This document shows, one piece after another, positions 1 through 14,964 of a DNA stretch of 19,966 bases. A model generated the notes under the pieces. That model saw only the letters and a list, made by a program, of their open reading frames with translations. It made no database searches and had not been told where the DNA came from. Source of the stretch: Bacteriovoracaceae bacterium. Its GTDB lineage: Bacteria > Bdellovibrionota > Bacteriovoracia > Bacteriovoracales > Bacteriovoracaceae. Position 1 is the stretch's first letter. Each line of letters opens with the position of its first letter. The stretch lies in contig JBFGZE010000064.1 of NCBI GenBank assembly GCA_041586955.1, positions 1 to 19,966 of the forward strand, written 5' to 3'. A program made the position numbers and the translations under genes.

Positions 1-657
1 CTCTTCCCCCTTCTAGGCCTTGCTGGCCACGAGTTTTTGGGAACTATCCTGTGGACCTTATTAATGGTCTTGTTTTTAGGCAAGGCCACATATAATCAAG
101 AATTACCCGCAGATTCACTCATTGGACTTTTTCTTACCACTTCCATGGCACTTGGCCTTATTATTGGGCAATTATTTTTAAAAGGTGGTAATTCGCTTCT
201 GCATTTTTTATTTGGAAATATTCTACTACTTAATCCTGCTGACGCCGCCATCTTAGTCGCACTTTCTTTCTTTACGGTGTTCATTTTTTATCGTTATCGA
301 GATTATTGGACCCTTTTTACTTTTGATGAAACTGAGGCGATCATTTCGCAACTACCAGTCAAGCGCTTACATTATGGGCTATTGATCCTTATCTCGCTCG
401 TCATTGTCCTTGGAGTCAAATTAGCAGGAACTCTTTTGGTTTCTTCTCTGCTTATTACTCCGGGATTATTTGCCCTTAGCTTGGCCAACAATCGCCGTCG
501 CACTTTCATTTTGGCGATATCTTTTAGCTTGGGCACTTCTCTCCTAGGCCTTTTTCTTGGAAATGCTCTCGGCCTACCTGTCGGTCCTAGTATTTGTATT
601 ATCCAATTCGTCTGCCTACTACCAAAAAGTATTGGCGCACGACTCAAGTCTTCATAA
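1..657 (+). CDS. Metal (Zn/Mn/Fe) ABC transporter permease, ABC-3/ZnuB-MntB family; 5'-truncated by the window edge
   Basis: Frame is open from base 1 (LFPLLGLAGHEFLGTILW...). Multiple TM helices and family-typical motifs: DSLIG..F..SMALG, FLFGNIL, TFDETEA, GTLLVSSLLITP, P.GPSI. Confidence 0.9.
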   Translation, partial: LFPLLGLAGHEFLGTILWTLLMVLFLGKATYNQELPADSLIGLFLTTSMALGLIIGQLFLKGGNSLLHFLFGNILLLNPADAAILVALSFFTVFIFYRYRDYWTLFTFDETEAIISQLPVKRLHYGLLILISLVIVLGVKLAGTLLVSSLLITPGLFALSLANNRRRTFILAISFSLGTSLLGLFLGNALGLPVGPSICIIQFVCLLPKSIGARLKSS

Positions 658-718
658 TGCAGAGTTTTTTAACAGCTCAATATTTCATTTAAGAAAGCAC
701 GAGAAATTATTTTGTAAG

Positions 719-1078
719 TTAGGAGAATTCCCAGCTTCTACTTTTTTTCTTATAGACAAGATTAAAATTGGATAAATTATCAAGCACGAGATCTTCTTTA
801 TCTCCCAATATCTTACGATCAGAATATTTAATAATAGCCGGACTCAATAAACTATCGACATGAACAGAAAACTGGACGAAGTCACCATCCTTAGGTTTAG
901 GAGGGAGGATGAAAACATCTTCATTTTTGGGCACGCAAATATCCCCAGAAGAGAGCTGAGTTCTACTATCAGTTCCCTCCTCATCTAATAACTTATTTCC
1001 ATTGATAAAACCGAGTACTGGAGTAAGAAGTACAGTACGCAAAAAATTCCAAATTAAGTTTCTTCTTCTAATGGCCAT
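719..1078 (-). CDS. Small protein with a twin-arginine-like leader and a phage long-tail-fibre (T4 gp34 N-terminal repeat-like) module
   Basis: N-terminus IRRRNLI followed by a hydrophobic stretch. C-terminal pattern ILPPKPKDGDFVQF...KILGDKEDLVLD...FNLVY...W resembles the LP..P..GD.V...I.G...DL.L...LVY...W tail-fibre repeat. Recognised by eye. Confidence 0.5.
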   Translation of the reverse strand: MAIRRRNLIWNFLRTVLLTPVLGFINGNKLLDEEGTDSRTQLSSGDICVPKNEDVFILPPKPKDGDFVQFSVHVDSLLSPAIIKYSDRKILGDKEDLVLDNLSNFNLVYKKKSRSWEFS

Positions 1079-1121
1079 GGCCCAATGTTACCATAAATTA
1101 TAAAAAAACGAGGAATTTATT

Positions 1122-2369
1122 GTGAAGAAATTTTTATGGCGTGGCTCCCGCTCGCAGGATGGCTTTAGTTTAGTTGAAGTTTTAGTGACTGCCGGTATTT
1201 TAGGGGGTTTGAGTGTCATTTATATGCGGCTTGCGGAAACTCAAATTAAGACCTCTAAAACCGTCGAGTCCCGCTATGAAACGACGGCCATACTTAATGA
1301 TATTCGAACTGTCTTATCGTCACCAGGATCCTGCCTGGAGTCGTTCAGCAATAATCCAGTCAGTCCCGGGGTCCCCTTTGCTTATAACCAAGGCGTTCTG
1401 CCCGACCCAGTCGGTCTAAGGCTAGTTCGAGGTGCCGCAACCACAGACCGCTTTATGGCAAACTCCGATGAAAACTTGGCCCAGGCCTATGGCAATGGCG
1501 CTATTAAAATTTTATCCTATTCACTAGATGATACCGACCCAACTGTTGGTATTGCCCCCGGAGAGACGATAGGAACCACCCATTTAATTGTTGAGTTTTA
1601 TCGTGGAAAAGGAGTTATGGGACAAGAAAGTATCACACGAAAAATAGTCCTGAACGTCGAGCGAGTCTCCCCTGGAGATAATAGTATTCGAGATTGTAAT
1701 ATTGCACCGGTTGGCCTAGGGCCCATGTCGTGTTCTTTATTACAAGGGGTTTACTCAGCAGGCCCACCTTCAAGGTGTGATCTCGGTCTTTACCGTGACC
1801 CTTCGGCCAATGATCAAAGAGACTATGCTATTTCAGAAAACTATATTCGAGATATGCTACTTCTTGACGACGATATGGGAACGTTAACGATTGGAAATAG
1901 TTCTGTAGCAGATGTCGTCACCATTAATGCGGCCACGACTATTTCCGGAAATACAGTCATTTCAGATGGCTTTACTTTTTCTATGGTTTCAGACAAAAAG
2001 CTAAAGGATGATATCCAAGAGCTAGGTCCAGTGCTTCAGAGTATCTCTAATTTACATGGCGTGCAATTCTCATGGAAATCAAATGGTCGGCCGGATATCG
2101 GCCTCATCGCCCAAGAGGTTCAAAAAGAGTTTCCACTACTAGTGCTTAAAGACAAAAAAACGGGAACTCTCTCAGTGAAATACGCACAATTAATTGCCGT
2201 AACGATTCAAGCGATCAAAGAGCTCAACGAAAAGAACCGTTTATTAGAAAAAGAAAACCAAGAGCTTATGATCAAGGGACGCGTTCAAGAAGAAAAAATT
2301 GATTTAATGGCAAAAGGCCTATGTCAAATCAATCCCACAATGGAAATCTGTAAATATCACAACGATTAA
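1122..2369 (+). CDS. Type IV pilin-like (prepilin N-methylation motif) protein fused to a C-terminal peptidase S74 intramolecular chaperone (tail-fibre ICA) domain
   Basis: GTG start with GAGGAA RBS. G|FSLVEVLVTAGILGG prepilin motif at 1161. S74 motifs SDKKLKDDI (Ser290 at 1989), LHGVQFSWK, IGLIAQEVQKEFPLLV and LSVKYAQLIAVTIQAIKEL, then a coiled coil. Confidence 0.88.
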   Translation: MKKFLWRGSRSQDGFSLVEVLVTAGILGGLSVIYMRLAETQIKTSKTVESRYETTAILNDIRTVLSSPGSCLESFSNNPVSPGVPFAYNQGVLPDPVGLRLVRGAATTDRFMANSDENLAQAYGNGAIKILSYSLDDTDPTVGIAPGETIGTTHLIVEFYRGKGVMGQESITRKIVLNVERVSPGDNSIRDCNIAPVGLGPMSCSLLQGVYSAGPPSRCDLGLYRDPSANDQRDYAISENYIRDMLLLDDDMGTLTIGNSSVADVVTINAATTISGNTVISDGFTFSMVSDKKLKDDIQELGPVLQSISNLHGVQFSWKSNGRPDIGLIAQEVQKEFPLLVLKDKKTGTLSVKYAQLIAVTIQAIKELNEKNRLLEKENQELMIKGRVQEEKIDLMAKGLCQINPTMEICKYHND

Positions 2370-2383
2370 ACTGAGGAGTTTAT

Positions 2384-2983
2384 ATGGGTCAACTATCAGA
2401 CAAATTAACTCAAATAGTGTTTGGAACAGGTGCGGGTCAACCATCCATCGCTCGCTGCCAAATCAATACTAACACCGGTGCCACGGTTGGTGCTGTCCCA
2501 AAAAATACAGCAAGTGCGACATCTCTCATTGTCAGTGGAGAATTTAAGGCCAATAAAGTATGGAATGCGGTATGGAATGATATCGCGGATTTTCAATTAT
2601 TAAACGATGAATTGAAATATGGCCTATGTTATTTTGACACTAAAGATGGCGCACGCATTTGTACCTCTCGTTGCCAAATGTCAGTCATTGGCATTGCCTC
2701 TGACTCTTTAGGATTTGGTGTAGGCTCAGGTGCTCACCCTGGCCAAGAAGTTCCGATAGCTGTTGCTGGTTGGGTTTTGGCCCATGTTGATCAAGAGTAT
2801 GAATGTGGCACTGTTTTAACAAACGATAAAAATGGATTCTTAACAAAGATGACAAAAGAGGAAAAACTTGAATATCCAGAGCGCATCGTGGCCCTCTATA
2901 AAAGGAAAGAAATGGACGAGTTCTGGGGGCCAGCGGGTCAACAAATTACTGTCAATGGTCGCCACTGGGTTAAAGTAAAATAA
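2384..2983 (+). CDS. Phage tail-fibre/appendage-like protein with a peptidase G2-like autoproteolytic chaperone domain
   Basis: GAGGAG RBS, 14 bp downstream of the pilin gene. KVWNAVWNDIADF resembles the NAVWNDYAE motif of phage fibre chaperones. Followed by VIGIASDSLGF, VPIAVAGWV, GTVLT, EYPERIV and ITVNGRHWVKVK. Confidence 0.62.
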   Translation: MGQLSDKLTQIVFGTGAGQPSIARCQINTNTGATVGAVPKNTASATSLIVSGEFKANKVWNAVWNDIADFQLLNDELKYGLCYFDTKDGARICTSRCQMSVIGIASDSLGFGVGSGAHPGQEVPIAVAGWVLAHVDQEYECGTVLTNDKNGFLTKMTKEEKLEYPERIVALYKRKEMDEFWGPAGQQITVNGRHWVKVK

Positions 2984-3034
2984 TTTTCAAAAGGATCATG
3001 TCAATTGATGACATAGAGATTTTTCGAAGGTTTT

Positions 3035-3337
3035 TTACTTGGGTTGCCAGATGCAACGATCGCTTTCTTCAAGGCAATCCTCTTGATCATTATCATACCG
3101 CGCGCAAAAATCGTCGTCTTCCTGGTTATTGTCTCGCTTTGACTCACAAGAATCTTTTTTTCCAGGAGTCCATAAACATTTATCCTGCTTGAGGCATTGC
3201 TTTTCATTATTGTCATACTCTTCACAATACTCCACATCGGTCTTCTTGTCCGATGCTTTAGCACCACATTCACCAGCTGATATATTTGTCATAATAGAAG
3301 TGACGAGTATAATTAAAAAAAATTGATATATTTTCAT
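3035..3337 (-). CDS. Small secreted Cys-rich acidic protein with two 40-aa repeats
   Basis: GAGGGAG RBS and Sec signal peptide (MKIYQFFLIILVTSIMTNISA). Eight Cys in two units of C-x13-C-x9-C-x5/6-C-x-W-x-P. Confidence 0.8.
   Translation of the reverse strand: MKIYQFFLIILVTSIMTNISAGECGAKASDKKTDVEYCEEYDNNEKQCLKQDKCLWTPGKKDSCESKRDNNQEDDDFCARYDNDQEDCLEESDRCIWQPK
3038..3274 (-). repeat. Intragenic tandem duplication of a 4-Cys module (aa ~22-61 and 62-100)
   Basis: YCEEYDNNEKQCLKQDKCLWTP aligns with FCARYDNDQEDCLEESDRCIWQP. Cys pairs at 24/64, 38/78, 48/88 and 54/95. Confidence 0.8.
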
Positions 3338-3523
3338 TTGGGACTCCCTCTTATCGTCAACCCTTTCATTATAGGCCTAACTCGATTAATATTATAAATG
3401 TATTTGAAAGATATTTTACATGGAAGAAAAATATCAAGCAGTTAGAATTAATTTTACCACCGTCTTCCATTGGCCATTTTACTATATCTGTTTATAAATA
3501 AATTTCACGAAGGGGCTTTATTC

Positions 3524-4600
3524 ATGACAATCGAAAAAAACTTTCTCCATAAAATGACGAATACTAATATTGATAATATTGAAAGTATGGACTTTGTTTT
3601 AAACCTTGATATTTTAGATGGATGTGTCCACTTCTGTGACGGCTGCTTCGTCAGAAAGAATAATGATATTAAAAATTGGGATACAGTCCTTGAAAAGGCC
3701 CTTACAATTGCTAAAGAATTAACGTCTAAGGGACTCCGCTTTAGGGAGTTAATATTAGGGCCAACCGACTTCTTTAGTGCTCATAATACTAAGGCGATTC
3801 TATTAGACCCACGCTTTCAGTCCCTGCTTACTCTCAACGAAAAAACACGTATCACCGCCTCTTGTGTTTTTGATTCCTTGGACAAAAACCATTTCCTAGA
3901 AATTTTTAATATTCTTGATGATACTCGCTATTTTAGAAAAGAGATGATTTTAGAGTTTCTCGTGCCTTTACACGCGGAAAAGATGCTTAACAAAGAGGCG
4001 CAATACATACAGGATAATAAATGGGCATTAGAGCATTTTAAAAATAAATCCCCTAAAGTGATCGACTGGTCTTATGTTATTAATATTAATAATAATGAAT
4101 TATTAAAAAATAATTATATGACAGTTGTTGATACCATTAAAAGAGAGTTTAATACTATTCTTGAATTTAACCCGGGGTTTTTTAGAACCAATAATAATCA
4201 ATTAATTGATAAAAACCTTACTTATTGGAAAGGCTTTCTGCAGAAAATCCTTGAAGGAAATCACTACTCAAACCTCTGTTTAACCAGCCTCGATAAGCAC
4301 CATAATACCGCCAATACCATCTGCCTTAACCTTATTGGGGATAAGGTCTATTTTAGTCCCTTTATCTATGAACAAATTATTGAGGCAAGCGATCTCTTTG
4401 CGGTAACCCCTCTCGATGGCGAAACAATTTTAAATAAGCATCTCGATCTCCAAAAGCAAGGCTTCCGCTATGCTGAAAAAACCAAGGAATGTATTGATTG
4501 CGAATTTCTCACTCCCTGTGTTGGCCGCAATGTCTTAAATTATATGGAAGTCAAAAACAAAGAGGATTGTTTATTTCCGGATAAATTTAAAGATCTTTAA
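3524..4600 (+). CDS. Atypical radical SAM protein (GPTDFF-type paralog 1) with a C-terminal 4-Cys auxiliary motif
   Basis: ATG at 3524 with AAGGGG RBS, preferred over the track's TTG at 3470. CVHFCDGC (CxxxCxxC); LILGPTDFF where GGE is expected; C-terminal CIDCEFLTPC-x16-C. Confidence 0.85.
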   Translation: MTIEKNFLHKMTNTNIDNIESMDFVLNLDILDGCVHFCDGCFVRKNNDIKNWDTVLEKALTIAKELTSKGLRFRELILGPTDFFSAHNTKAILLDPRFQSLLTLNEKTRITASCVFDSLDKNHFLEIFNILDDTRYFRKEMILEFLVPLHAEKMLNKEAQYIQDNKWALEHFKNKSPKVIDWSYVININNNELLKNNYMTVVDTIKREFNTILEFNPGFFRTNNNQLIDKNLTYWKGFLQKILEGNHYSNLCLTSLDKHHNTANTICLNLIGDKVYFSPFIYEQIIEASDLFAVTPLDGETILNKHLDLQKQGFRYAEKTKECIDCEFLTPCVGRNVLNYMEVKNKEDCLFPDKFKDL

Positions 4601-5679
4601 CTCTTATCAAGAAATTTATAGAATGACTTAAGGGGACAGGTATCCATGTCCCTTTTTCTATTTCGCCAATCCCATTGGGTAAAGCAACGAAATCCACATT
4701 TTTGAAAATACTCACAGGAGAGACATCCCATCTCATCCAAAAAATTTTGCATCATCCCGGCATTATCTTTTAAATTTAATTTTGTATTAAAATCTTTTTG
4801 CTCGTAGCGATGCCAACGACAATTAGAGGTTCTATTATCGGGAAAAATTGTGATCTTATTTAATGATAAGCAATGCATTTTATTAAAGTTATTATTAATT
4901 AAATCGGCCACGGGCTGAATTCGAGGGTACTTTTCTGCAATAAATTTATACCAATTAAAAAACTCTGAGTCTGTGGGGACGGATTCATCTGAACCAGCAT
5001 CTGGTATAAAATCATCAAAATAGATATTAAAATTATTATATAAAAATTTAAAATAGAGATCTTTATCTTTAATAAATTCCTTAATCGATTCGCTTGTTCC
5101 GACAAGATTAATTGAGCAAATATACTCTGGCCCAAACCACGAGATATTATCGGTATAAAGCCTAGACATAGGCCTTCCATGAAAATCATACGACGCTATA
5201 AGATAACTATCAATTTCGGCCTTCCTAAGGTCGAGAAGGAGTTTTTTAACTCTCTCCCTTTTCTTAAAGAGGAAGTTACTGACGATAACGACCTTCATCT
5301 TAAAATTGAACTCATCAAAATAAGGTTTTAGCTCTTTTAGAAGATCAGTATAGTCTTGGCATAAGCGATCCATCCAGCGATCTTGTAATAGTTCACCTCC
5401 GACCAAATTAATTTGAACTAAATCCACTCGTCCTCGTTGTTTTTTTAAAAAGTCAACAATCAGAGGAATCTTAGAAAACATTTCTTCTCGTGTCAGTCCT
5501 GTTTGAGATTTCTTATCGTGAAAGCAAAAGTCACAGGTAATATTACAATTTTCAAAAAGAGTGAGTTCAATTTCGGCAATATCAGGCCTTTTACTTTCAA
5601 GGATCGATTTAGTGGCGCTCATGGGTAGCGCTGGAGACTTAAAGCTATCGGAGTTTTCTTTTTCTTTAAGCGTAATCAT
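4597..5679 (-). CDS. Radical SAM protein with a SPASM/twitch-like C-terminal Cys cluster
   Basis: CNITCDFC; LVGGE; C-terminal HC...NC...CLSCEYFQKCGFRC...TC. Confidence 0.9.
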   Translation of the reverse strand: MITLKEKENSDSFKSPALPMSATKSILESKRPDIAEIELTLFENCNITCDFCFHDKKSQTGLTREEMFSKIPLIVDFLKKQRGRVDLVQINLVGGELLQDRWMDRLCQDYTDLLKELKPYFDEFNFKMKVVIVSNFLFKKRERVKKLLLDLRKAEIDSYLIASYDFHGRPMSRLYTDNISWFGPEYICSINLVGTSESIKEFIKDKDLYFKFLYNNFNIYFDDFIPDAGSDESVPTDSEFFNWYKFIAEKYPRIQPVADLINNNFNKMHCLSLNKITIFPDNRTSNCRWHRYEQKDFNTKLNLKDNAGMMQNFLDEMGCLSCEYFQKCGFRCFTQWDWRNRKRDMDTCPLKSFYKFLDKS

Positions 5680-5710
5680 CGCAGACCTAGGGAAAAAATT
5701 AGAATATTTT

Positions 5711-5751
5711 TATAGTTCTTTAACTATAGATTTCCCCGTTATTACTGTCAA
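5711..5751 (-). promoter_or_regulatory. Sigma70-type promoter for the 4597-5679 gene, overlapped by a short inverted repeat
   Basis: Minus strand TTGACA (5751-5746), 17-nt spacer, TATAGT (5728-5723). Inverted repeat TATAGTT-cttt-AACTATA at 5711-5728. Confidence 0.6.
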
Positions 5752-5760
5752 ATTATAAGC

Positions 5761-6807
5761 CTACATCAGTTCTAATAGATTGAGGACTTTAGAAGGGAAC
5801 GGGCATTCCTTAATTTCCTTAAGCTCCATAATTGAAAGAACATTCTTCCCGACACAGGAATTGAGATTGCTGCAATCAGAGCAATCATGAGTTTTAAGAC
5901 TGTAAAGGTATTGCGACCTCATGAGAGTATCCACTTTATCAATAATCGAGCGAGGGCCGATAGTTTTGATTCGTAAACCTTCATCGCATTCATTGAGAGG
6001 CCTATAGATGAAAGGAGAAATGTAAAGGTGTTCATCAGAATAATTGAGGTAGAGGACTTGAAAAAAGTGATAATCCTTCTCTCCTATTGGCAATAGAAGC
6101 CCTTTATAATTTTCATTTGATATATAATCATTTAGGAAATCCTTGAGGTTTTGTAATCTTACTATCAAACCTCCTTGGGCACCTGTCATTTGTTCAGGTA
6201 AAAACTGAATGACAAACTCGACGTCTTGCCCTAAGGAAGTTTCAAGAGATGACACGATTTTATCACTAAATTCTTCAAATAATTTACAATCATTATAGTC
6301 CACATTAAAGGAAAAGATAGGCCTTCGCTGATGATTATTAAAATGTTTCGAAAGCGAAGAGAGTGTTCCTAGAAAGTCTTCATCCGCTTGTAAAAGCCTC
6401 GCTAGAGGGCACGTTAAGACAATATTAATATCCAGAGTTTGAGGATATAGGAGCGGATTATTGAGCAGTGAAAAAGGGCCTAATAGAGCTTTTACATCAC
6501 CATTATCTACTTCATCAAGTTTTATGGGTATGGTGATCCTCATATAGGGATGTTCTTTCAAAAAACCTTGAAAATGAGGACTGCTCATAACCCCATCGAC
6601 CTGAAAACTTCTGGAACCTAAAACAAGCCCCTTAAACCGATAATTCTGATCAACCAGTTGATTGATGGCGTTTAAAGTTAAAAGAAAAGGATGCTTAGCG
6701 CTCAATTTTTGGCGCAACAAACCTGCAATATTAAGTACAATATTTATTTTATGAGAAATGCTATCATCCAAATGCTGATTGAGTTTTTCAATGCTACTTA
6801 TGGCCAT
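5761..6807 (-). CDS. Degenerate radical SAM-fold paralog lacking CxxxCxxC (GPTDFF-type paralog 2)
   Basis: Aligns with the 3524 and 11446 proteins (RFKGLVLGSRSF vs RFRELILGPTDFF; LYISPFIY vs VYFSPFIY; CSDCSNLNSCVGKNV-..C). No N-terminal Cys triad. Intact 348-aa ORF. Confidence 0.75.
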   Translation of the reverse strand: MAISSIEKLNQHLDDSISHKINIVLNIAGLLRQKLSAKHPFLLTLNAINQLVDQNYRFKGLVLGSRSFQVDGVMSSPHFQGFLKEHPYMRITIPIKLDEVDNGDVKALLGPFSLLNNPLLYPQTLDINIVLTCPLARLLQADEDFLGTLSSLSKHFNNHQRRPIFSFNVDYNDCKLFEEFSDKIVSSLETSLGQDVEFVIQFLPEQMTGAQGGLIVRLQNLKDFLNDYISNENYKGLLLPIGEKDYHFFQVLYLNYSDEHLYISPFIYRPLNECDEGLRIKTIGPRSIIDKVDTLMRSQYLYSLKTHDCSDCSNLNSCVGKNVLSIMELKEIKECPFPSKVLNLLELM

Positions 6808-6880
6808 GCCAAATTATGGCATATTTTTAAGTTTGACCCAATAATTATTCCCACTGCAAAGGTAATGATCCTACCATTAA

Positions 6881-6950
6881 GTTAGGTTTACACCAACAAG
6901 GTCAGCGTGTAACATTTAACTATAATCCATCGAGGTACATCAGGAGGAGA
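6881..6950 (+). promoter_or_regulatory. Putative promoter/operator and RBS of the candidate substrate gene
   Basis: Perfect TATAAT at 6921-6926 with no consensus -35. Dyad TTACAC (6888-6893)-N13-GTGTAA (6907-6912), flanked by GTTA/TAAC. AGGAGG RBS at 6942-6947. Confidence 0.45.
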
Positions 6951-6955
6951 TAAAC

Positions 6956-7492
6956 GTGACAACACATGTTGATCGAGCGGCTAAAATTCAAAAATTCATT
7001 GATGATGTTATCACCCCAGCAACCAATGCATTTGAAGTTGGTAGGGAGGCCATTCCTGGAGGTCAAGGCCCCATCCCCAATATTCTCTCTCATTGTGATG
7101 AGTTTAGAATCACTCCTAATGATTTTAATACAATCGCCCCTCGTGGCGGGCAACTCACGGCCTCCGCCTTGGCCGATATTTTTCAATATTACGCCTATAT
7201 TCTAACTTCCTGTCGGCGGGCCACAATCAGTCGGTACGGAGGAGGAGTTATCTCCACCGATAAAGTCACAACCCTAAACTCTAACTATAGAATGAACTTT
7301 GCCGCCTTTAAGTCGGCGGTTACCGCAAGTCCCAACCCCTTAGATAATCTTCAACCTGGCAACCCCGCTGCTTCAGCTGCGCTAGATGCCTTAATCGCAA
7401 GACTTGCTTCAATTGTTACAACCCAGCGTAATATGGCCCCCGTCAACGTTACGATATGCCATGGCTGCCATAGCTCACGCGGAAGACGTTAA
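6956..7492 (+). CDS. Candidate radical SAM substrate/precursor protein with a C-terminal CHGCHSSRGRR tail
   Basis: GTG start with a strong AGGAGG RBS. Ala/Gly/Thr-rich 178-aa protein, unlike the neighbouring enzymes in composition, with no signal peptide. Cys/His/Ser-rich basic C-terminus; central position in the rSAM cluster. The ORF is secure but the function is inferred. Confidence 0.65.
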   Translation: MTTHVDRAAKIQKFIDDVITPATNAFEVGREAIPGGQGPIPNILSHCDEFRITPNDFNTIAPRGGQLTASALADIFQYYAYILTSCRRATISRYGGGVISTDKVTTLNSNYRMNFAAFKSAVTASPNPLDNLQPGNPAASAALDALIARLASIVTTQRNMAPVNVTICHGCHSSRGRR

Positions 7493-7520
7493 ATAAATTT
7501 TAAAAAGAGGTAGATTTTAA

Positions 7521-8288
7521 ATGAATAATGACCAAGAAATTAAATATATTGATGTTCCTCTTAAAGTAGAGGAGTTAAAAGAGTTTATCGAAAATAAGAC
7601 AAAATATTCTTATTTTATTAATTACCAAACCTCTGAACTCAAAGATTTGGTACTTCTCAATTATATTTCCAACCTCGAGTTACCAGCAGAAATCATCATG
7701 GACAATTGCTCCTATGATGAAAAAGCAGGTCTGCTTAAGGCCTATATGGATACACGGAATATTGTTAAAATAGACTCTCTTGCTCTTAACGTCGCCAAGA
7801 TCCTTTTAGATTATCGAGGCCTTGACACTACAGAAATATTTAACCGGCCCTATTTCGATCAAAATGAAAGTAAGCAATTTATCAATGATCATAAAGAGCT
7901 TATCCAGAAATGGGAACATTTTCTCGAGAGCACTATTATTTTCGCCCAATCTTGTGTCAAAGAACTTAACGAGCTTCTTAAAATTAAAGAAGATATTGAA
8001 GTTATCAATGACAGTCGTTATGTTGGATCGAATATAGTCAATCTATTTTCTATCCCCTCTTTTTCCGAATTATTCTTTCTCGTCCCCTTAAGAACGGAAC
8101 TCAAATATTTCAGGCCACAATTTGAAGAGAGAATGTTTAAGGGCAGAAGTTTTTACGATTATTATTTTTGTCAGCAAAATGATGTTTTAAATATGTTTTT
8201 AGCGCATATTGAAAATGATATTACTCGTAATGATATGAACGCTGCTTATAAAGAAGCACAGGCCATTTTAATGGAAAGCAATCCATAA
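7521..8288 (+). CDS. Hypothetical protein, rSAM-cluster accessory factor
   Basis: AGAGGT RBS; 255 aa, soluble; 28 bp downstream of the candidate substrate. No catalytic motif recognised. Confidence 0.75.
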   Translation: MNNDQEIKYIDVPLKVEELKEFIENKTKYSYFINYQTSELKDLVLLNYISNLELPAEIIMDNCSYDEKAGLLKAYMDTRNIVKIDSLALNVAKILLDYRGLDTTEIFNRPYFDQNESKQFINDHKELIQKWEHFLESTIIFAQSCVKELNELLKIKEDIEVINDSRYVGSNIVNLFSIPSFSELFFLVPLRTELKYFRPQFEERMFKGRSFYDYYFCQQNDVLNMFLAHIENDITRNDMNAAYKEAQAILMESNP

Positions 8289-8293
8289 TTTAA

Positions 8294-9376
8294 TTATTCT
8301 TGCCCCATAAACCCTGCTAGAACCTTTTTATAAAGAGTAGCATTTTCATCGGCATTGGCCTTTAATTCATGCATCAAGCTCTTTGGCGCCGCACATACAT
8401 CACCTTGCCAACCAAGTTGGTGGCAATCACCATTACAAATATCATAGACCGGGCATTCATTACATATAGGGTTTCTCAAGACCTCGTCATTGATATTACA
8501 AAGACGACCAGTACTTCCCATTAAGGCGGAAATATCATCATTAATGGTGCCAAAAGTATTAGAGACAGCGCCGTTAGGGCAACCACCAATGGTACCATCA
8601 GCATTAAGCGTCAGGACTTTCTGCTCACAACTACGCGAACGACATCCTGAATGAGTATTATAGACCAGCGAAGATAGGATTGAGTCCAGAAACAGATTAT
8701 CAATAGACTCCCAGGTTTTATGCTCAACGGTTTGTATCCACATAAGATGGAGCCAACGATCAATATCAATATTTGAGGGCATAATATTATTTTCTAAATT
8801 TAAAAGGGCATTTCCATCAGCAGTCACCCTCTCAAAGTTAATATATTTCACCCCCAAAGACGCCAGATCTTTAATTATATCTATCGGCTGTAGTTCTTTA
8901 ATAACATTTCCGGTCAAACTCACCATAACAGTAATCTGATGACCTCGGTCGGCCAATTCTTTGACATTGGAGCGCCATAATTTTTCTTGTGCCGAATTGG
9001 TCCAGCGAATACCATAATCCCAGGAAGTTCCCCACGACTTCTGGCAAATTTTATCTAAAACAGCTACTTTATCCTCTGTTAATTTATAAGTCAGGTTAGT
9101 TTGAATAGACCACCAAATATTGGGCCATAAGTCTTTAATTCCATTCCAGGCCTCAAACATCATTTCTGTAGGACATAAGAAGGGCTCTCCCCCGTGAAAG
9201 GAGATATGGCCATTATCATAATGAGGATGATAGCGCTTTAAACGCTTAAAAAAATCGATTGTTTTTGCGACATCAAAAAACCCCTTTTTACCGTTACTAC
9301 CATTGGTGAAACAATGAGAGCAATTGAGCTGGCAGGTGTCAGTTGTTTTAAGATAAACGATTAAGTCATTTGCCAA
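8294..9376 (-). CDS. Radical SAM/SPASM domain protein (peptide/protein maturase-like)
   Basis: TTG start with GAGGA RBS. CQLNCSHC; SFHGGEP; IQTN; SPASM-like CRSRSC...DGTIGGCP...CNECPVYDICNGDC...C. Confidence 0.92.
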   Translation of the reverse strand: MANDLIVYLKTTDTCQLNCSHCFTNGSNGKKGFFDVAKTIDFFKRLKRYHPHYDNGHISFHGGEPFLCPTEMMFEAWNGIKDLWPNIWWSIQTNLTYKLTEDKVAVLDKICQKSWGTSWDYGIRWTNSAQEKLWRSNVKELADRGHQITVMVSLTGNVIKELQPIDIIKDLASLGVKYINFERVTADGNALLNLENNIMPSNIDIDRWLHLMWIQTVEHKTWESIDNLFLDSILSSLVYNTHSGCRSRSCEQKVLTLNADGTIGGCPNGAVSNTFGTINDDISALMGSTGRLCNINDEVLRNPICNECPVYDICNGDCHQLGWQGDVCAAPKSLMHELKANADENATLYKKVLAGFMGQE

Positions 9377-9481
9377 AGTCTTTTTCCTCGTTGATCATTA
9401 GTATAATTCTTTATGCTAGTAAAAATGGTAACATTCTAACTTTCAAAAGAACAATAGTTTTGGCAGAGAAATGGAATTCAA

Positions 9482-10537
9482 TTGGAACTAATCGTTAAAC
9501 CGACAGAGATATGTAATTTCGCTTGCACTTTTTGTAGCTCACCTCACTTATCAAAAGAAAAAGGGAAAATACTCGATATTGATAAAATATTTCAATTCTT
9601 AAAGCGCTTTCCCCAAACCAATACTCTTATTATCAACGGTGGCGATCCACTAATGGTTAGACCGAACTATTATTGGAGAATATTAGAACATATTGAAGCG
9701 AATAATCTAATCACCAAAATAAGTTTTACCACCAATCTTTGGGACTTCTATTTGCACCCTGAGAAATGGACAGCATTATTTCAGCATGAGAGAGTTGGGG
9801 TCACGACCTCCTTTAATTATGGTGAGACCAGAAGAGTCAGCAAATCAAAAAATTTTACCGAAGACTTATTTTGGAAAGTATCAGACAAATTTTCAAATTT
9901 AATTGGGTATCGGCCCGATTTTATCAGTGTTGTCAATGATCAAAATGAATCTACCGCTCTCGACAATGTTCTTCTGGCCAAGAAGATGAATGTCGAATGT
10001 AAATTAAACTACGCCATGGCCTCTGGCAGAGAATCTAGACCCTATCAATTATCAAAAATATATCAAATATACCTAGAGATTATTAAAAATAAACTAACCC
10101 CCTGGGAATTTAATACCAAAGAATTAATTAAGGGGATAAATAAACGGACAACAATTTGCCCCCGCAACCGTACTTGCGACTCAGGAATACGCTGTATCCA
10201 ACCTTCTGGTGATTATTATAGCTGTGGCGCCTTTGGCGATGATCACGAACATAGTATTGATTTTGATCAAGAGATGAATGATACTAATATCTCTACCCCA
10301 TTATCTGATAATTTTGAATTATCATCATTAAAAATGGAATGCTTTGGATGTCCCATGTTCGAGATATGTAATGGATGCCATAAAACTATTAGTGACTTAA
10401 AACGATTCAATATGGTCGAGTCTCATTGCCAACTAATGAAGCAATTGGAAAAAGAAATATGTCTTCTCGGTAACGATTTTAACCTCTTCAAAGTAAAAGA
10501 GATGGACAATGTTGGAAAACATAACTCTTTCAATTAA
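9482..10537 (+). CDS. Radical SAM/SPASM domain protein (peptide/protein maturase-like)
   Basis: TTG start. LIVKPTEICNFACTFC; INGGDP; FTTN; SPASM-like CPRNRTC...GDYYSC...CFGCPMFEICNGC...HC. Confidence 0.92.
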   Translation: MELIVKPTEICNFACTFCSSPHLSKEKGKILDIDKIFQFLKRFPQTNTLIINGGDPLMVRPNYYWRILEHIEANNLITKISFTTNLWDFYLHPEKWTALFQHERVGVTTSFNYGETRRVSKSKNFTEDLFWKVSDKFSNLIGYRPDFISVVNDQNESTALDNVLLAKKMNVECKLNYAMASGRESRPYQLSKIYQIYLEIIKNKLTPWEFNTKELIKGINKRTTICPRNRTCDSGIRCIQPSGDYYSCGAFGDDHEHSIDFDQEMNDTNISTPLSDNFELSSLKMECFGCPMFEICNGCHKTISDLKRFNMVESHCQLMKQLEKEICLLGNDFNLFKVKEMDNVGKHNSFN

Positions 10538-11462
10538 CCCTATTTATCAATGCAATTTCCGTTGCGACTTCTGCTATTTAAGGCCAGAACAATTATCGGA
10601 TCCCAAAACCCTATCTCTCAATAAACTTGAGGCCAGACTCAAAGAAATCTCATCCCACCGTCGAATTTCTTTTATCGACCTCTATGGTGGTGAGATCGCC
10701 CTATTAAAAAATGATTACCTCAACGAGATGCATGCCATCGTACGGAATTTCTACCGCGGGCCCATTAATGTCATCACCAACTTAAGTATGAATATTCCCT
10801 ATTTTGATAAAGAAGATGTGACCCTTTCCGTCAGCTGGGATTACGATGGTCGGGCCCAATATGACAAAGTCTTGAGTCATATCATGGGAATGAGTAAAGA
10901 TGTTCATATTCTCATGCTCGCTTCCCCTCAAATGCTAAAATGGGATGTTCAAAAAGTCACAGACGTGGTCTCACTTTTTAATCTGGCCAAAAATATTAAA
11001 AGTGTCGAAATCAAACCTTATTCAGCGAATCAATCGAACCAATATAATATTACCTATAATGCTTTCGAAGAATTTATTAAATTATGGCTCAGCTTAAAAG
11101 AAACCTTCCAATTCCAATTTATCAACGAGCAATTAATCCTTGATTCATTAAAAGGCGTTAAAAACTCTTGGTCAGATGACCATCTCTATATAACTCCCAA
11201 TGGGAAATTGGCCGTTTTAGATTTTGATACAAATTATAATGAGCAATTTATTGAACTTAATAATTTTGAGCAATATACCCAGTGGCATAAAAAAGAAAAA
11301 ATTAAAATTACCCAAAACAAAGAATGCTCATCTTGTTCCTATATGGGCCATTGCCTTAGTGAACATTTAAAAAATCATTCAAATCATAAAAACTCATGTG
11401 ATGGTTTCAAAGGTCTATTGGATTGGTATAAGGAGGAAGATCATTATGGCACTAGTGAGTGA
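10509..11462 (+). CDS. Radical SAM protein with a C-terminal 4-Cys auxiliary motif
   Basis: CNFRCDFC; LYGGE; VITN; C-terminal CSSCSYMGHCLSEH...SC. Overlaps the upstream gene by 29 bp. Confidence 0.9.
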   Translation: MLENITLSINPIYQCNFRCDFCYLRPEQLSDPKTLSLNKLEARLKEISSHRRISFIDLYGGEIALLKNDYLNEMHAIVRNFYRGPINVITNLSMNIPYFDKEDVTLSVSWDYDGRAQYDKVLSHIMGMSKDVHILMLASPQMLKWDVQKVTDVVSLFNLAKNIKSVEIKPYSANQSNQYNITYNAFEEFIKLWLSLKETFQFQFINEQLILDSLKGVKNSWSDDHLYITPNGKLAVLDFDTNYNEQFIELNNFEQYTQWHKKEKIKITQNKECSSCSYMGHCLSEHLKNHSNHKNSCDGFKGLLDWYKEEDHYGTSE

Positions 11463-12549
11463 TAACTTTCAGGCGATGGCAATCAGTGATAAAATGAATA
11501 TCACGATGGATCAGGCGTCTACCTTCAATATTCGCTTCAATATAGAGGTTCTCAAGGGTTGTGAGTTTCATTGCCCAGGTTGCTATGTGAATCGGGATAA
11601 TGCCTTTGACGAAAATGATCTCGAAATTCTACTACAGGCTTCCGAACAATTCAGCACTAATGGATTCCACTTCGAAGAAATTATTATCGGCCCAACTGAT
11701 TTTTTCGCCGCCTATAATACGATTGACCTCATTACCAATCCCAAATTTGCCCAATTAATTCAACCCAAAAGAGTCATGACGATCCTTTCAACTCTCCTTA
11801 GTCACAAAAATGAAATCCTTAAACGTATAGGTCTTGTCAATCAATATCTAGGCAAGGATTTTGAAGTAGAAGTTCTTATTCCTTTTGATGTCATGAAAAT
11901 TCTTTCTAAAGATCCACAATACATTCACCAATTAAAGGAAAAAATTGAATTACTACAATTCTTTGATGCGGATGTTGAATATGCCCTACAAATGAATATT
12001 CAAGATACCTCACAACTTGAACATTTTGACCTTTTCGAGGTGGCCCAATATATAAAAAATGAGTTCAGCTCCATTACCGAGTTTAATCCCTCATTTCTGC
12101 GTACCGGCAATGACCAATTGATTATCAAAACCATGAGTGCATGGAACCAAATGCTCAATAAAAACTTCTGTCATAAAATGTCTAAGACCATGGATAATAT
12201 TTTATTTACCATGGGAGATCCCATCCATGCAGGACTAAATGAGGTCACTTATAATTTTAAAAAAGGTATTTTTTATGAATGCCCTTTTATTTATGAAAAT
12301 GTCTTTGACAAAGGATCGCGCTTTAAAATTACACCTAATGGAGAAAATGGTCGTTATCTCTTAGATGACTTTATTAACCATCGCCATCAGGTTGATCGCC
12401 AGCAATTGCAATATCTTGAGCAAACAGATGAATGCTCGACTTGCCCTCATGTTATATCCTGCGTCGGCAAACAAGTAATTCATTATATGATGGATAAAAA
12501 AATAACTCATTGTCTCTTGGCCAAAGATGTCATGGATCTCTATGCTTAA
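11446..12549 (+). CDS. Atypical radical SAM protein (GPTDFF-type paralog 3)
   Basis: ATG at 11446 with AGGAGG RBS, preferred over the track's 11398. CEFHCPGC; IIIGPTDFF; EFNPSFLRT; C-terminal CSTCPHVISC-x16-C. Confidence 0.87.
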   Translation: MALVSDNFQAMAISDKMNITMDQASTFNIRFNIEVLKGCEFHCPGCYVNRDNAFDENDLEILLQASEQFSTNGFHFEEIIIGPTDFFAAYNTIDLITNPKFAQLIQPKRVMTILSTLLSHKNEILKRIGLVNQYLGKDFEVEVLIPFDVMKILSKDPQYIHQLKEKIELLQFFDADVEYALQMNIQDTSQLEHFDLFEVAQYIKNEFSSITEFNPSFLRTGNDQLIIKTMSAWNQMLNKNFCHKMSKTMDNILFTMGDPIHAGLNEVTYNFKKGIFYECPFIYENVFDKGSRFKITPNGENGRYLLDDFINHRHQVDRQQLQYLEQTDECSTCPHVISCVGKQVIHYMMDKKITHCLLAKDVMDLYA

Positions 12550-13012
12550 AGATCATAAGTTCAGGCAACACCTCTTTCTCACCTTCAGTGGCCCTGAAAA
12601 ACTAAAAAAGGGCAAAACCTATATTTATCCCAATCTTTCAAAGGAAGAATTAATTGGCCATATTACCGCCTATTTTAGGGTGGAGCAAAAAGATCTTATC
12701 TATCCCGCCAAATCCTATTGTGTCGCCATCATTTATGCCCTTTTATTAGAGGAATATTTTGGTGAGGACTTTTATCATACCCTCAATGATCCTGAACTAT
12801 TTCAAAATACAGATCAATACTTCCTGCCCTATTCACAGAATAAAGAGATTTACGATCAGGTCTTGCTGCAACTCAAAGAAGAGGGAACTTTTCCCCAATT
12901 GAACTTAGAACTCGACCAAGTTCAAACCACGGTCAATTGTTTTAAAGATGAGTTTTTTGTTAATTTTACAGATTTAAAGAAATTGGTCCAGGATTTGGCC
13001 TTTCAAGCATAA
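12542..13012 (+). CDS. Hypothetical protein, rSAM-cluster accessory factor
   Basis: Likely ATG at 12542 overlapping the upstream stop (ATGCTTAA); alternative start at 12527. Distinctive YPAKSYCVAIIYA...FGEDFY..LNDPEL...DQYFLPY segment. Last gene of the rSAM operon. Confidence 0.75.
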   Translation: MLKDHKFRQHLFLTFSGPEKLKKGKTYIYPNLSKEELIGHITAYFRVEQKDLIYPAKSYCVAIIYALLLEEYFGEDFYHTLNDPELFQNTDQYFLPYSQNKEIYDQVLLQLKEEGTFPQLNLELDQVQTTVNCFKDEFFVNFTDLKKLVQDLAFQA

Positions 13013-13019
13013 GGTTTCT

Positions 13020-13048
13020 TTGACCTCTATCTCTTAAAGGCCTAAAAT
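13020..13048 (+). promoter_or_regulatory. Sigma70-type promoter, probably leaderless, marking the right boundary of the rSAM operon
   Basis: TTGACC (13020-13025), 17 nt, TAAAAT (13043-13048). ATG at 13055 with no Shine-Dalgarno. Confidence 0.6.
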
Positions 13049-13054
13049 AAAGTC

Positions 13055-13669
13055 ATGAAATACCTTTTTTCTCTCTTATTTTTCATTTTTATCCAGGCAG
13101 AGGAGCCTGCCCTTCACTCTTTCCCTCCTCCCCATAAAGGCTGCCCTTTAAACGCCTGGTGTTCTGAACAAACCGGACAATTAATCACCAAATGGGAAAA
13201 TGAGCAGGAAAAAGGCATCAGTACCACTGTTCCATTATTAATATGGAGTCAAAAAGAGGGAGAGCTCAAGCAAACCGTCAGCTATAGCGGTATCTGTAAA
13301 AACCCACTCTCCATGGCCATTTATTTTGGCAAGAGTCTCCCAACCCAAACTCATTGGCAGACAAACACCATCAATATTTGGCATCAAAAGAAAATCACCA
13401 AAAGTTATCCTGCCCTTCGCCAGGAAATCCCCATAAAGGCCACGCCAGAGGGGCTTACCTATTTAATCCGCTTTAACGGCCATTATTCTATTTTTCATCT
13501 CAATAATAAGTCACAAGTTACGGTTCTTGAAAACCCTCCTAAAGTTATGGATCAAATGCGCGAAATCAATTGTCCCGCTCATATCAAAGATTCGGATAAG
13601 TCGAAAGTTCGGTGCTACTTTATAAATGGCGGTCCTCAGATTTTGGCGATGCGCTCTCCCTGCCTATGA
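13055..13669 (+). CDS. Secreted hypothetical protein
   Basis: Signal peptide MKYLFSLLFFIFIQA; six Cys; ATGA overlap with the next gene. Confidence 0.75.
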   Translation: MKYLFSLLFFIFIQAEEPALHSFPPPHKGCPLNAWCSEQTGQLITKWENEQEKGISTTVPLLIWSQKEGELKQTVSYSGICKNPLSMAIYFGKSLPTQTHWQTNTINIWHQKKITKSYPALRQEIPIKATPEGLTYLIRFNGHYSIFHLNNKSQVTVLENPPKVMDQMREINCPAHIKDSDKSKVRCYFINGGPQILAMRSPCL

Positions 13670-14532
13670 AAATCGTTTTTTGGAATGTTGAAAATTTATT
13701 TTTACCGCATTGTGATCCCGGTCCACTAAAGTCACAAAAAAATATTGAATCATTAGCGCAACAAATCCATTATATGGATCCCGATATTTTATTTCTTGCC
13801 GAGGTGGGGGGACTTTTAGCGCTAGAGACATTCAACCTTAATTTTTTACAAAATAAATACCGCATTCTCTTTACCCCGGGAAATAGTAATCGCAATATTC
13901 AATTGGCCTGCCTCATTAAGTCCGAATTTGAAAGCAAAAGCTCTCACTTAAGTTACGCCAAATCACTTTTAGGGCAAAGTCCCGATGGCCGTGATCTTTA
14001 TTTTGCTCGCGACTTAGGTCATCTTATCTTAAAGGATGAAGACCGAGAAAAACCACTGCACCTTTGGTGGGTTCATCTCAAAAGTCAATTAACAGTCGCC
14101 GCCGATGATCACCGAGGCATTATTCACCGTGAACACGAAATCAAGTTTATTTGCCAAAAAATAAATGAATATCAAGATGACCAGCATATACTGATGGGTG
14201 ATTTTAATGGCCTGGCCTTTCATGAATTTCCCGATCGCGAGTTCCGGCCATTGATGGAGCTTCCTCTCTCCTGCCTTTATGAGAAATTGGATGTCGAACC
14301 CCAGTTTTCCTGGCTTGGTTTTGACAGGGCCAAAAAGTTTACACCCCTAATGCTTGATTATGCCTTTTTATCCGAGGATCTTTTTGATTTTCTCGATAAA
14401 AAAGAATCAGGACTCTTTCACCCTCTGAATGAAGATGGAAAACCCCTATCATGGCCTAAGCACCCACGTGATCGTGTTAATTTTCCAGCCGATCATTTAC
14501 CACTGGTTATAAAGCTCAAAGCTAGTCGTTGA
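13666..14532 (+). CDS. Endonuclease/exonuclease/phosphatase (EEP) family protein
   Basis: Start at ATG 13666 (MKIVFWNVENLF). Motifs PDILFLAEV, VHLKS, ILMGDFN, LDYAF and ADHLPL. Confidence 0.92.
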   Translation: MKIVFWNVENLFLPHCDPGPLKSQKNIESLAQQIHYMDPDILFLAEVGGLLALETFNLNFLQNKYRILFTPGNSNRNIQLACLIKSEFESKSSHLSYAKSLLGQSPDGRDLYFARDLGHLILKDEDREKPLHLWWVHLKSQLTVAADDHRGIIHREHEIKFICQKINEYQDDQHILMGDFNGLAFHEFPDREFRPLMELPLSCLYEKLDVEPQFSWLGFDRAKKFTPLMLDYAFLSEDLFDFLDKKESGLFHPLNEDGKPLSWPKHPRDRVNFPADHLPLVIKLKASR

Positions 14533-14557
14533 TTTAACCCGCCTTTTTTTATAAGCT
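14529..14557 (+). promoter_or_regulatory. Sigma70-type promoter, probably leaderless
   Basis: TTGATT (14529-14534), 17 nt, TAAGCT (14552-14557). ATG at 14565 with no Shine-Dalgarno. Confidence 0.45.
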
Positions 14558-14564
14558 TATTCCT

Positions 14565-14927
14565 ATGAAAATTTTAATCGCTATTTTATTTATGCAGGGC
14601 CTCGTTTATGCCGGCCCTTACCAATTCAACCTGCAAATTACTGAACCTGACTTTACTCTTAAAAACTACCCTTTAGACGATAAAGAGTTTCGCCCCTTTA
14701 TGCAAAAAACCAGTTGGCGTTGTTTTTTTGGCGAGACAAAAGAGAAAGGGAAAGATCAGTTTTATAAAAATGTCCGCTGCAATTATAGTGTCAAAAAAGT
14801 TGGGGAATTCACGACAAAAATAGTCTGTGGAAAAAATATGCCCTTCAATGAGCTCCATCTCGATTTATTAGATGAGAAGAAAAACCTGACCTTTAAGATC
14901 TACCTCTTTTGTAAACCTAAGGCCTAG
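14565..14927 (+). CDS. Secreted hypothetical protein
   Basis: Signal peptide MKILIAILFMQGLVYA; four Cys; beta-rich pattern. Confidence 0.75.
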   Translation: MKILIAILFMQGLVYAGPYQFNLQITEPDFTLKNYPLDDKEFRPFMQKTSWRCFFGETKEKGKDQFYKNVRCNYSVKKVGEFTTKIVCGKNMPFNELHLDLLDEKKNLTFKIYLFCKPKA

Positions 14928-14944: not shown

Positions 14945-14964
14945 GTTCTCTACAGGAGGACCTC

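Follow-up and report, generated by a model that had tools for sequence, protein, structure and literature searches.

A radical SAM cassette surrounding a protein with a conserved Cys/His tail in Bdellovibrionota and jumbo phages

Radical S-adenosylmethionine (SAM) enzymes with SPASM domains are known for the maturation of small peptides and of a limited number of enzymes. The γ subunit of quinohemoprotein amine dehydrogenase is a small protein that receives several cysteine thioether cross-links from the radical SAM/SPASM enzyme QhpD and stays a subunit of the assembly. Described here is a comparative analysis of a 19,966-nucleotide stretch of DNA from a Bacteriovoracaceae bacterium (contig JBFGZE010000064.1, positions 1 to 19,966; hereafter, the window), in which seven radical SAM-like genes flank an open reading frame (ORF) for a protein of 178 residues. 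This protein, referred to as the tail protein, ends in a short tail of Cys-His (CH) units followed by RGRR. It had been put forward from the DNA letters (the original prediction) as a substrate whose tail is cross-linked or metal-loaded by the neighboring enzymes. The cassette most likely represents radical SAM-dependent protein maturation with an unusual substrate in an unexpected, structural phage-and-predator context, and it would be an undescribed kind of maturation if the tail protein is modified.

The radical SAM-like proteins of the window fall into two groups by their PHROG matches, namely four with phrog_1802 (rA1 to rA4) and three with phrog_31457 (rB1 to rB3). Every named maturase model was matched at 15 to 38 bits versus cut-offs of 180 to 855. 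The profile of rA2 aligns over its full length with the sulfatase maturase anSME (4k37) at an E-value of 2.2e-9 and, in its N-terminal part only, with ChlB and CteB; single-sequence searches of the PDB with rA2 and rA3 found nothing. Like the system considered here, anSME is a radical SAM/SPASM enzyme without the recognition element (RRE) for peptides that are made by the ribosome and then modified post-translationally (RiPPs), and its target is a Cys that lies in a short motif within a protein of full size. The last unit of the tail, C-x-x-x-R, resembles the outer positions of C-x-P/A-x-R. The score of rA2 is 38.2 bits versus a cut-off of 349.45, however, the +2 position of the tail is never Pro and is Ala in 16 of 191 CH units, the tail protein is not a sulfatase, and four to seven enzymes are present rather than one. 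The QhpD system is similar in that its substrate is a small protein, not a peptide, and is retained in the final assembly. It differs in that rA2 and rA1 score 31.8 and 19.2 bits versus a cut-off of 453, the tail has no Asp/Glu acceptors, there is no dehydrogenase partner, and the context is that of phages and predators.

The PapB ranthipeptides, SCIFF, and the CXXX-repeat peptides share with the tail protein a Cys period of four in a C-terminal core beside radical SAM/SPASM genes. The respective scores are 32 bits versus 340 for PapB, 19.2 bits versus 425 for the SCIFF maturase, and 20.2 bits versus 350 for the CXXX-repeat maturase (TIGR04115), the last of these over the radical SAM core region only. 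The tail-protein precursors, in contrast, are 120 to 310 residues long with a folded body, an invariant His next to the Cys, and an RxRR end. The original prediction had also pointed to the His-Xaa-Ser systems (HxsA-D) on account of an HSS triplet in the tail. Although H-x-S triplets are frequent and radical SAM pairs adjoin a repeat protein, the enzymes of the window reach only 36.6 and 18.2 bits versus the HxsC cut-off of 267.9, NCBIfam gave no HxsB or HxsD match, and none of 24 tail-protein homologs matches any NCBIfam model, such that this link is not supported. With the triceptide maturases XyeB, YhhB, FxsB, and GrrM the window enzymes score below 30 bits (cut-offs of 310 to 450); a triceptide motif could accommodate the H-x-[S/A/N/D] triplets, whereas Cys, invariant in the tail, is not needed by those systems. 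What the window shares with radical SAM/SPASM maturation in general are CxxxCxxC enzymes, SPASM/twitch cysteines, and a co-located candidate substrate with a conserved motif.

By sequence comparison, the tail protein belongs to an unnamed family. An exhaustive search of 1.84 billion representative proteins provided 23 family representatives at E ≤ 0.001, 19 of them at ≤ 1e-10, and a word-indexed search provided two relatives of the window protein. The window protein has no match among the models of Pfam, NCBIfam, PHROG, or PADLOC, and a protein atlas search gave no usable match. The alignment was built from 24 homologs found by whole-sequence similarity, with the 72-residue fragment P0026, which also ends with (CHxx)n-RxRR, left out. 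These 24 proteins are 178 to 311 residues long with a mean column identity of 26% and a body rich in insertions. Cys 168, His 169, His 172, Arg 175, Arg 177, and Arg 178 are invariant and Cys 171 is nearly so. The conserved positions of the body are hydrophobic or structural (Phe 14, Val 18, Ala 69, Phe 76, Thr 84, Arg 87, Phe 118, and Gly 135), and the alignment shows no conservation of acidic or catalytic residues there. As judged from these sequences, the tail is the sole strictly conserved part of the family and the body is variable.

The C-terminus of the window protein reads ICHGCHSSRGRR, with the two CH units, SS, RGRR, CxxCH, and HSS all present as predicted. All but one of the 24 homologs end in (CHxx)n-[S/A/N]-R-x-R-R. 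Only P0007 departs from this; a single Cys is left in it, and it carries one CH and HNH before RSRGRR, with extra His residues kept. Among 64 unique members 63 have the (CHxx)n-RxRR end; 40 of these were retrieved by the tail pattern itself, and 23 of the 24 members found by homology only agree. With that proportion among proteins found by whole-sequence similarity, the tail is judged to be far beyond chance, and the lack of tail conservation that was to refute the original prediction was not seen. The number of CH units is three in 55 of the unique members, two in four, four in three, one in one, and six in one, counts that are biased because the search pattern required two units and RGRR. 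The window copy, with its two units, is the shortened variant that had been supposed. It is also the only one of the 64 with CxxCH; the rest carry CxxxCH, which suggests a one-residue deletion in the window copy. The third position of the unit is Ser in 144 of 191 units and otherwise Ala, Asn, or Asp, the Cys being invariant, and every member, P0007 included, keeps at least four Cys/His ligands. With its homologous body and two-unit C-terminus, the window protein matches the family profile (24 homologs) at 3.4e-65.

Relatives in tailed phages, with CHxS units and SRGRR beside radical SAM arrays, had been mentioned in the original prediction, and such proteins do exist. A tblastn search of phages with the window tail protein found nothing, and the phage copies were reached by way of the neighboring 255-residue protein, which matches 14 jumbo-phage records, and then by ORF071 of Ralstonia phage RSF1. 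This protein of 186 residues, which ends in CHSSCHSSCHGSRGRR, is recognized by the family profile at 1.7e-12 and occurs in 11 records of the RSF1 phage group; its neighbors are annotated as Fe-S oxidoreductase, radical SAM, cupin, and 2-oxoglutarate (2OG) oxygenase. Phage Atu_ph07 encodes another member. ORF071 belongs to the unannotated phage family phrog_35144 (E 4.7e-129), and other members of the tail-protein family match phrog_35144 by way of the tail region. In a broad sense phrog_35144 is the same family as the tail protein, although with the window protein and its closest relative an E-value of 0.01 was not reached. A further member, from the cultured Firmicute Dysosmobacter segnis BX15 (L044:3907-4266, minus strand), has a short body largely replaced by many CHxx units with NV(P)V spacers; it ends with CHSARGRR and adjoins cassette radical SAM genes on a 4.3-kb contig.

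The linkage between tail and enzymes was examined in loci collected with a degenerate DNA pattern for CHxxCHxx-RGRR-stop, which gave 63 loci from bacteria and archaea at one genome per species. The family profile recognizes an ORF in 35 of these, which together with two phage loci and the window gives 42 ORFs from 38 sources; the other 28 pattern loci served as the control. Radical SAM genes of the cassette are present in all 38 family loci (one to seven in each, median 4.5, seven in the window), and the nearest lies within 1 kb of the tail gene in 32. Homologs without such neighbors were looked for, and 0 of the 38 loci provided one. In the control, only one of the 28 loci (L060) has any cassette gene, and its cassette is cut by the contig end. 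Nine Streptococcus control loci (L010, L014, L016, L023, L027, L029, L035, L036, and L048) have neither a motif-ending ORF nor a cassette gene, and their pattern matches represent a conserved unrelated sequence.

The 255-residue partner is encoded in 31 of the 38 family loci and lies less than 100 bp from the tail gene in 17, and the order rA2, tail gene, partner gene recurs in phages and bacteria. Across phages and bacteria, orthology of the four phrog_1802-type enzymes is one-to-one (E-values of 1e-36 to 1e-180). The CH..CH motif occurs in no other ORF of the 38 loci except the SPASM region of one radical SAM protein in two loci; the tail protein is thus, among the predicted cassette products, the only component with a substrate-like conserved motif. 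Tandem duplicates of the tail gene are present in four loci (L008, L026, L043, and L063), and these, along with the hyper-repeat of L044, resemble multi-copy precursors. Additional genes found elsewhere include a further radical SAM gene between the tail and 255-residue genes (15 loci). A B12-binding radical SAM and a cupin similar to JmjC are encoded in 10 loci each, and 2OG oxygenases in nine. From their sequences, the lineage-specific extras (cupin/JmjC-like, 2OG oxygenases, and B12-binding radical SAM) look like tailoring enzymes. The small cupin, with similarity to JmjC_2, is located directly 5' of the rA2-type enzyme (L001, L002, L011, L013, L026, L043, L053, L055, L065, and L060) and is absent from the window. 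JmjC_2 is the family of ribosomal Arg/His hydroxylases; His and Arg are invariant residues of the tail.

The hosts of the cassette are Bdellovibrionota chromosomes and jumbo or T4-like phages (the RSF1/RSL2 group and Atu_ph07). A tree of rA3 with 27 rows (E ≤ 1e-90, at least 280 residues) has two clades with support of 99/95. Members of the phage-type clade are Atu_ph07, RSF1, phage-like contigs in various metagenome-assembled genomes (MAGs), and one Halobacteriovoraceae locus, whereas the second, of 18 rows, holds Bdellovibrionota loci and one locus from a Flavobacteriaceae bin (L055). The window groups with Bacteriovoracia. Note that L011 and L065, of which one is binned into a Marinovum MAG and the other into a Methanobacteriota archaeon MAG, have the same T4-like layout and near-identical rA3 proteins (branch lengths of 0.02 to 0.04); from these sequences, they are probably mis-binned phage contigs.

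The family member of Atu_ph07 (L002; 121118-122008 of the record) has 296 residues and a calculated mass of 31.89 kDa. Since its upstream neighbors calculate to 66.07 and 21.66 kDa, it could be fixed as gp170, next to gp176 and gp177. According to the published proteome, gp170 is a virion protein with eight unique peptides, 35.16% coverage, and a presence in bands 1 to 9 that peaks in band 1 (Supplementary Table S5, PMC6102473). In that gel, proteins of ∼120-140 kDa peak in bands 1 and 2, the 43.5-kDa capsid protein in band 6, and 30-kDa proteins in band 8 (PMC6102473). By our count, Table S5 contains 43 proteins of 25 to 40 kDa, most of which peak in bands 5 to 9; a maximum in band 1 is seen only for gp170, gp321, and gp616, the last of these with a single peptide. 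Covalent attachment, or an assembly of extreme stability, would account for the position of gp170 at the top of the gel, with other causes possible. None of gp165-169 and gp171-175, which include the enzymes, the 255-residue homolog, and the cupin, is found in the virion Table S5 of PMC6102473. The giant structural neighbor gp180 (13,350 bp) is also missing from that list. Given that the phage homolog is packaged in virions, it is probably the entire protein, rather than a peptide released from it, that forms the product.

AlphaFold2, run with the 24-sequence alignment, predicts a confident α/β domain for the body (pLDDT 85.9, pTM 0.83) followed by a disordered tail, in which the last nine residues are of low confidence and the last block has a pLDDT of 54. 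No fold match was found for this model in the PDB with Foldseek (best E 1.8), and a library of predicted viral structures gave matches to the family itself only, including the 296-residue Atu_ph07 protein. A profile search of PDB sequences likewise found nothing and showed no similarity to ferredoxins, flavodoxins, or A-type carriers. No longer fused forms of the tail protein were found, which is weak evidence. A prediction of the complex of rA2 with the tail protein, both supplied as alignments, gave a score of 0.00 and a mark of 0.32 and was used as evidence neither way.

The features of the window are listed in Table 1. The tail-protein ORF was confirmed, with its GTG start at 6956 and its stop at 7490-7492, and the strong ribosome-binding site (RBS) of the original prediction is in place. 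Ala, Gly, Ser, Thr, Asn, and Pro make up 48% of the protein, and in its first 30 residues the maximum Kyte-Doolittle mean over 15 residues is 0.64, in keeping with the small-residue-rich body and with no hydrophobic N-terminus or signal peptide, as had been stated. The TATAAT element of the original prediction is present as an exact hexamer inside the 148-bp divergent intergenic gap 5' of the gene; it is not listed by a σ70 promoter scan because no acceptable -35 hexamer fits. As the upstream gene, rB2, is on the other strand, this gap must contain a promoter, and with rB2 divergent and the 255-residue gene downstream on the same strand, the tail-protein and 255-residue genes form their own transcription unit.

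Table 1. Coordinates of the cassette and of neighboring features in the window
Feature	Position	Strand	Remarks
Fiber-like protein, 415 aa	1122..2369	+	Pfam Peptidase_S74 5.5e-13, N_methyl; tail-fiber PHROGs down to 1.6e-28
199-aa protein	2384..2983	+	Homologs E 1e-59 to 1e-93; directly after fiber gene
rB1, radical SAM-like paralog (phrog_31457)	3470..4600	+	CxxxCxxC and CxxCx5C...C C-terminus
rA1, radical SAM/SPASM-like	4597..5679	-	phrog_1802 at 7.7e-27; NCBIfam matches radical SAM core only
rB2, rB1 paralog without CxxxCxxC	5761..6807	-	Aligns with rB1 over 307 residues at 24% identity (E 7e-28)
TATAAT hexamer	6921..6926	+	Read directly; absent from promoter scan
RBS AGGAGGAG	6942..6949	+	6 nt before GTG
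Tail-protein gene, 178 aa	6956..7492	+	α/β body residues 1-167 and disordered tail
C-terminal tail CHGCHSSRGRR, residues 168-178	7457..7489	+	Two CH units, then RGRR
255-aa partner protein	7521..8288	+	phrog_20767 at E 6.8e-57; operon shared with tail gene
rA2, radical SAM/SPASM	8294..9376	-	Pfam Radical_SAM, NCBIfam SPASM, phrog_1802 at 2.9e-52
rA3, radical SAM/SPASM	9482..10537	+	Orthologs E 1e-110 to 1e-160, phage and Bdellovibrionota loci
rA4, radical SAM with four-Cys C-terminal motif	10509..11462	+	Own ortholog cluster in 26 loci
rB3, radical SAM-like paralog (phrog_31457)	11398..12549	+	rB family in 24 loci
161-aa cassette protein	12527..13012	+	phrog_20737 at 7.3e-27; in 26 loci

The CxxxCxxC motif is present in six of the seven radical SAM-like proteins. 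Pfam Radical_SAM matches three of the enzymes, two above and one just below the Pfam cut-off, and the NCBIfam SPASM domain scores 26.7 bits with rA2 and 24.7 bits with rA3, just below its cut-off of 27, and weakly with rA4. SPASM-type C-terminal cysteines are found in rA1, rA2, and rA3, and a four-Cys motif in the others. The enzymes rA2, rA3, and rA4 begin directly with the cluster motif (residues 11-22). In rA2, which is the radical SAM gene most often adjacent to the tail gene, CxxxCxxC occupies residues 15-22, and its seven C-terminal cysteines are invariant in 25 orthologs. Lacking the triad, rB2 is probably not a catalytic radical SAM enzyme; its sequence suggests that it may be a non-catalytic scaffold. 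It keeps the C-terminal four-Cys motif, and an ortholog was seen only in L006. The 255-residue partner is predicted with a pLDDT of 90.5 by AlphaFold2, and no PDB sequence match, no PDB fold match (best E 0.14), and no Pfam match of useful E in any of 20 members were found; the protein atlas gave only uninformative helical look-alikes, with recognition below the reliable range. A defense system was considered and rejected, given that a defense-system library provided only radical SAM-core matches to viperins.

As listed, consecutive cassette genes overlap, at 10509-10537 (29 nt) and 11398-11462 (65 nt), and the true start of rB3 may be a later in-frame ATG. The gene at 13055-13669 (plus strand), which encodes 204 residues and an N-terminus resembling a signal peptide, extends past the start listed for 13612-14532 (plus strand), a member of the endonuclease/exonuclease/phosphatase family. 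Since neither has homologs in the related loci, the cassette probably ends at 13012. The outer flanks of the window are cellular, with an ABC-3 permease, BamB, a tetratricopeptide repeat (TPR) protein, and outer-membrane-like proteins.

The fiber-like product of the first gene in Table 1 combines a prepilin-type N-terminus with a C-terminal S74 intramolecular-chaperone domain, and the cassette lies 3' of it. This protein and the 199-residue protein accompany the cassette in 13 of the 38 family loci, the fiber-like protein being linked to it in Bdellovibrionota, and they may take part in the radical SAM system. The highly conserved 199-residue protein has 276 homologs, the named ones being from Bdellovibrionota; one homolog is called "Peptidase G2 IMC aut..." by one source, and none was found in 50,697 phage records. 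More generally, a fiber-like gene is present in the fetched flank of 20 of the 38 loci, with giant ones directly upstream in seven phage-like loci. Tail-fiber, fiber-assembly, and baseplate-connector genes border the cassette in L011 and L013, both of them phage-like contigs. In L026, 5 nt separate the end of a 2019-residue fiber-like gene from the first tail gene, and in Atu_ph07 a structural gene of 13,350 bp is found 6 kb upstream. S74-terminated fibers are known surface adhesins of Bdellovibrio, and in strain HD100 the MAT fibers comprise 13 S74 and eight non-S74 proteins (n = 21; PMC10769870).

On balance, we lean toward the view that the 178-residue protein is a dedicated, protein-sized substrate of the radical SAM cassette and that the whole matured protein is the product. 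Its role as a substrate is well supported by comparative genomics, namely the conserved tail and the radical SAM linkage, whereas modification of the tail is proposed on the basis of the enzyme class. In such a scheme the body would dock the tail protein onto the enzymes, which without an RRE domain resemble sulfatase maturases in architecture. By hydrogen-atom abstraction in the tail, the enzymes would then form covalent links based on Cys. A thioether, either inside the tail or joining it to a partner chain, would be the most likely type of link, with Cys oxidation as a second option, and a Cys-His or His-Cβ link might also be envisaged. The terminal RxRR would anchor the chain end. The matured protein could then serve as a stable structural element with virion fibers or whiskers in phages, and with S74-type fibers in the predatory bacterium. 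A bolder proposal, which we put forward only tentatively, is that a Cys/His cross-link or protein-derived metal center, built by radical SAM enzymes at the C-terminus of an adaptor, fixes that adaptor irreversibly onto giant fibers or whiskers, and that this device is common to jumbo phages and to the prey-recognition fibers of Bdellovibrionota.

Several points weigh against the favored interpretation. The chemistry is argued by analogy from the enzyme class, neither Pfam nor NCBIfam finds an RRE/PqqD-like peptide-recognition domain in the enzymes or their partners, and no recognizable fold was found for the two accessory proteins with Pfam and NCBIfam or, for the 255-residue protein, in the PDB. 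The virion evidence consists of one proteome from one phage, in which the top of the gel may reflect non-covalent assemblies resistant to sodium dodecyl sulfate (SDS), and the main text of PMC6102473 makes no mention of gp170. As S74 fiber genes are numerous in Bdellovibrio, part of the fiber linkage may be due to chance. The window protein has no signal peptide, whereas the neighboring fiber has an export-type N-terminus, and a bacterial surface role would thus need an unknown export route. Finally, P0007, with its one Cys and extra His, appears to fit a metal-ligand role better than that of a strict enzyme substrate.

The main rival explanation is accordingly an unmodified metal site. The tail, without covalent modification, would bind a metal or Fe-S cluster, and the protein would be either an accessory of the enzymes, for instance one that carries clusters or donates electrons to as many as seven Fe-S enzymes, or a metal-stapled structural tip. 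The tip of the T4 long tail fiber, with its His-ligated iron sites, offers a parallel for the latter, and the cassette adjoins fiber genes. The invariant residues include both Cys and His, the four or more Cys/His ligands are kept even in P0007, and CHGCH of the window would supply two Cys and two His. A supply of clusters does seem to matter, in that marine T4-like phages with up to 12 radical SAM genes also have Fe-S assembly genes (PMC5332604). We nevertheless consider this explanation unlikely. The body has neither a similarity to ferredoxins, flavodoxins, or A-type carriers nor a PDB fold match, the tail is predicted to be disordered, the CH units vary from one to six in number with an altered spacing in the window copy, tandem duplicated copies occur, and packaging in virions would be an odd fate for an enzyme accessory. 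A c-type heme attached at CxxCH, as hinted by the original prediction and by the C-H-G-C-H of the window copy, has next to no probability. The restriction of CxxCH to a single unique member already contradicts it, and neither a signal peptide nor, by Pfam and NCBIfam, cytochrome c maturation genes are found in the window.

Alternatively, the tail protein might be a classical RiPP precursor in which the 167-residue body is a very long leader and the CH-repeat peptide is released as a bioactive or metal-chelating compound. The conserved C-terminal core, the variable N-terminal part, the multi-copy precursors, and the tailoring enzymes are all in line with this, and an ABC exporter-type gene is present in the related locus L006, with its family in five loci. 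This explanation is rather improbable, however, since Pfam and NCBIfam reveal no protease or exporter in the window cassette, the body is a well-folded, conserved domain by its pLDDT, the Atu_ph07 protein is found in the virion with 35% of its sequence covered, and a secreted peptide is of no obvious use to lytic jumbo phages. It could also be argued that the tail protein is a structural protein whose gene merely lies beside the radical SAM genes, and that the enzymes act on fiber proteins, nucleic acid, or a small molecule. That the Atu_ph07 member, but not the enzymes, is associated with the virion would fit, as would the giant fiber-like genes directly upstream in the seven phage-like loci. 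In 38 of 38 loci, however, from phages and from bacteria of different phyla, the gene is embedded between radical SAM genes on both sides, no other neighboring ORF has the repeat motif, and fiber genes are absent from 18 of the 38 flanks, so that a chance neighborhood of this kind is quite improbable.

Jumbo-phage genome papers list radical SAM, Fe-S oxidoreductase, cupin, and 2OG genes as accessory only (PMC8066314, PMC5468394, and PMC11898562), and the marine virome study describes T4-like genomes with up to 12 radical SAM genes and Fe-S assembly genes (PMC5332604). The term "radical SAM" does not occur in a comparative review of jumbo phages, searches with tail-motif strings gave no relevant paper, and those for radical SAM modification of phage tail fiber proteins gave neither a relevant report nor a functional account of the cassette. 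The family and the cassette are thus undescribed in the open-access literature searched.

What sets this system apart is that a conserved set of four to eight radical SAM/SPASM enzymes surrounds a folded protein that is found in phage particles. The cassette is a simple, testable system in which a single substrate is combined with a defined enzyme set. If the favored interpretation is true, the tail protein would represent a new class of substrate and probably a new Cys/His chemistry, and it would explain the radical SAM gene arrays that several jumbo-phage papers list only as accessory genes. If the adaptor is indeed cross-linked, it would be the first virion structural protein matured by radical SAM enzymes. 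With the tail modified as proposed, the cassette would also amount to a surface or fiber technology common to phages and to predatory bacteria that attack Gram-negative cells.

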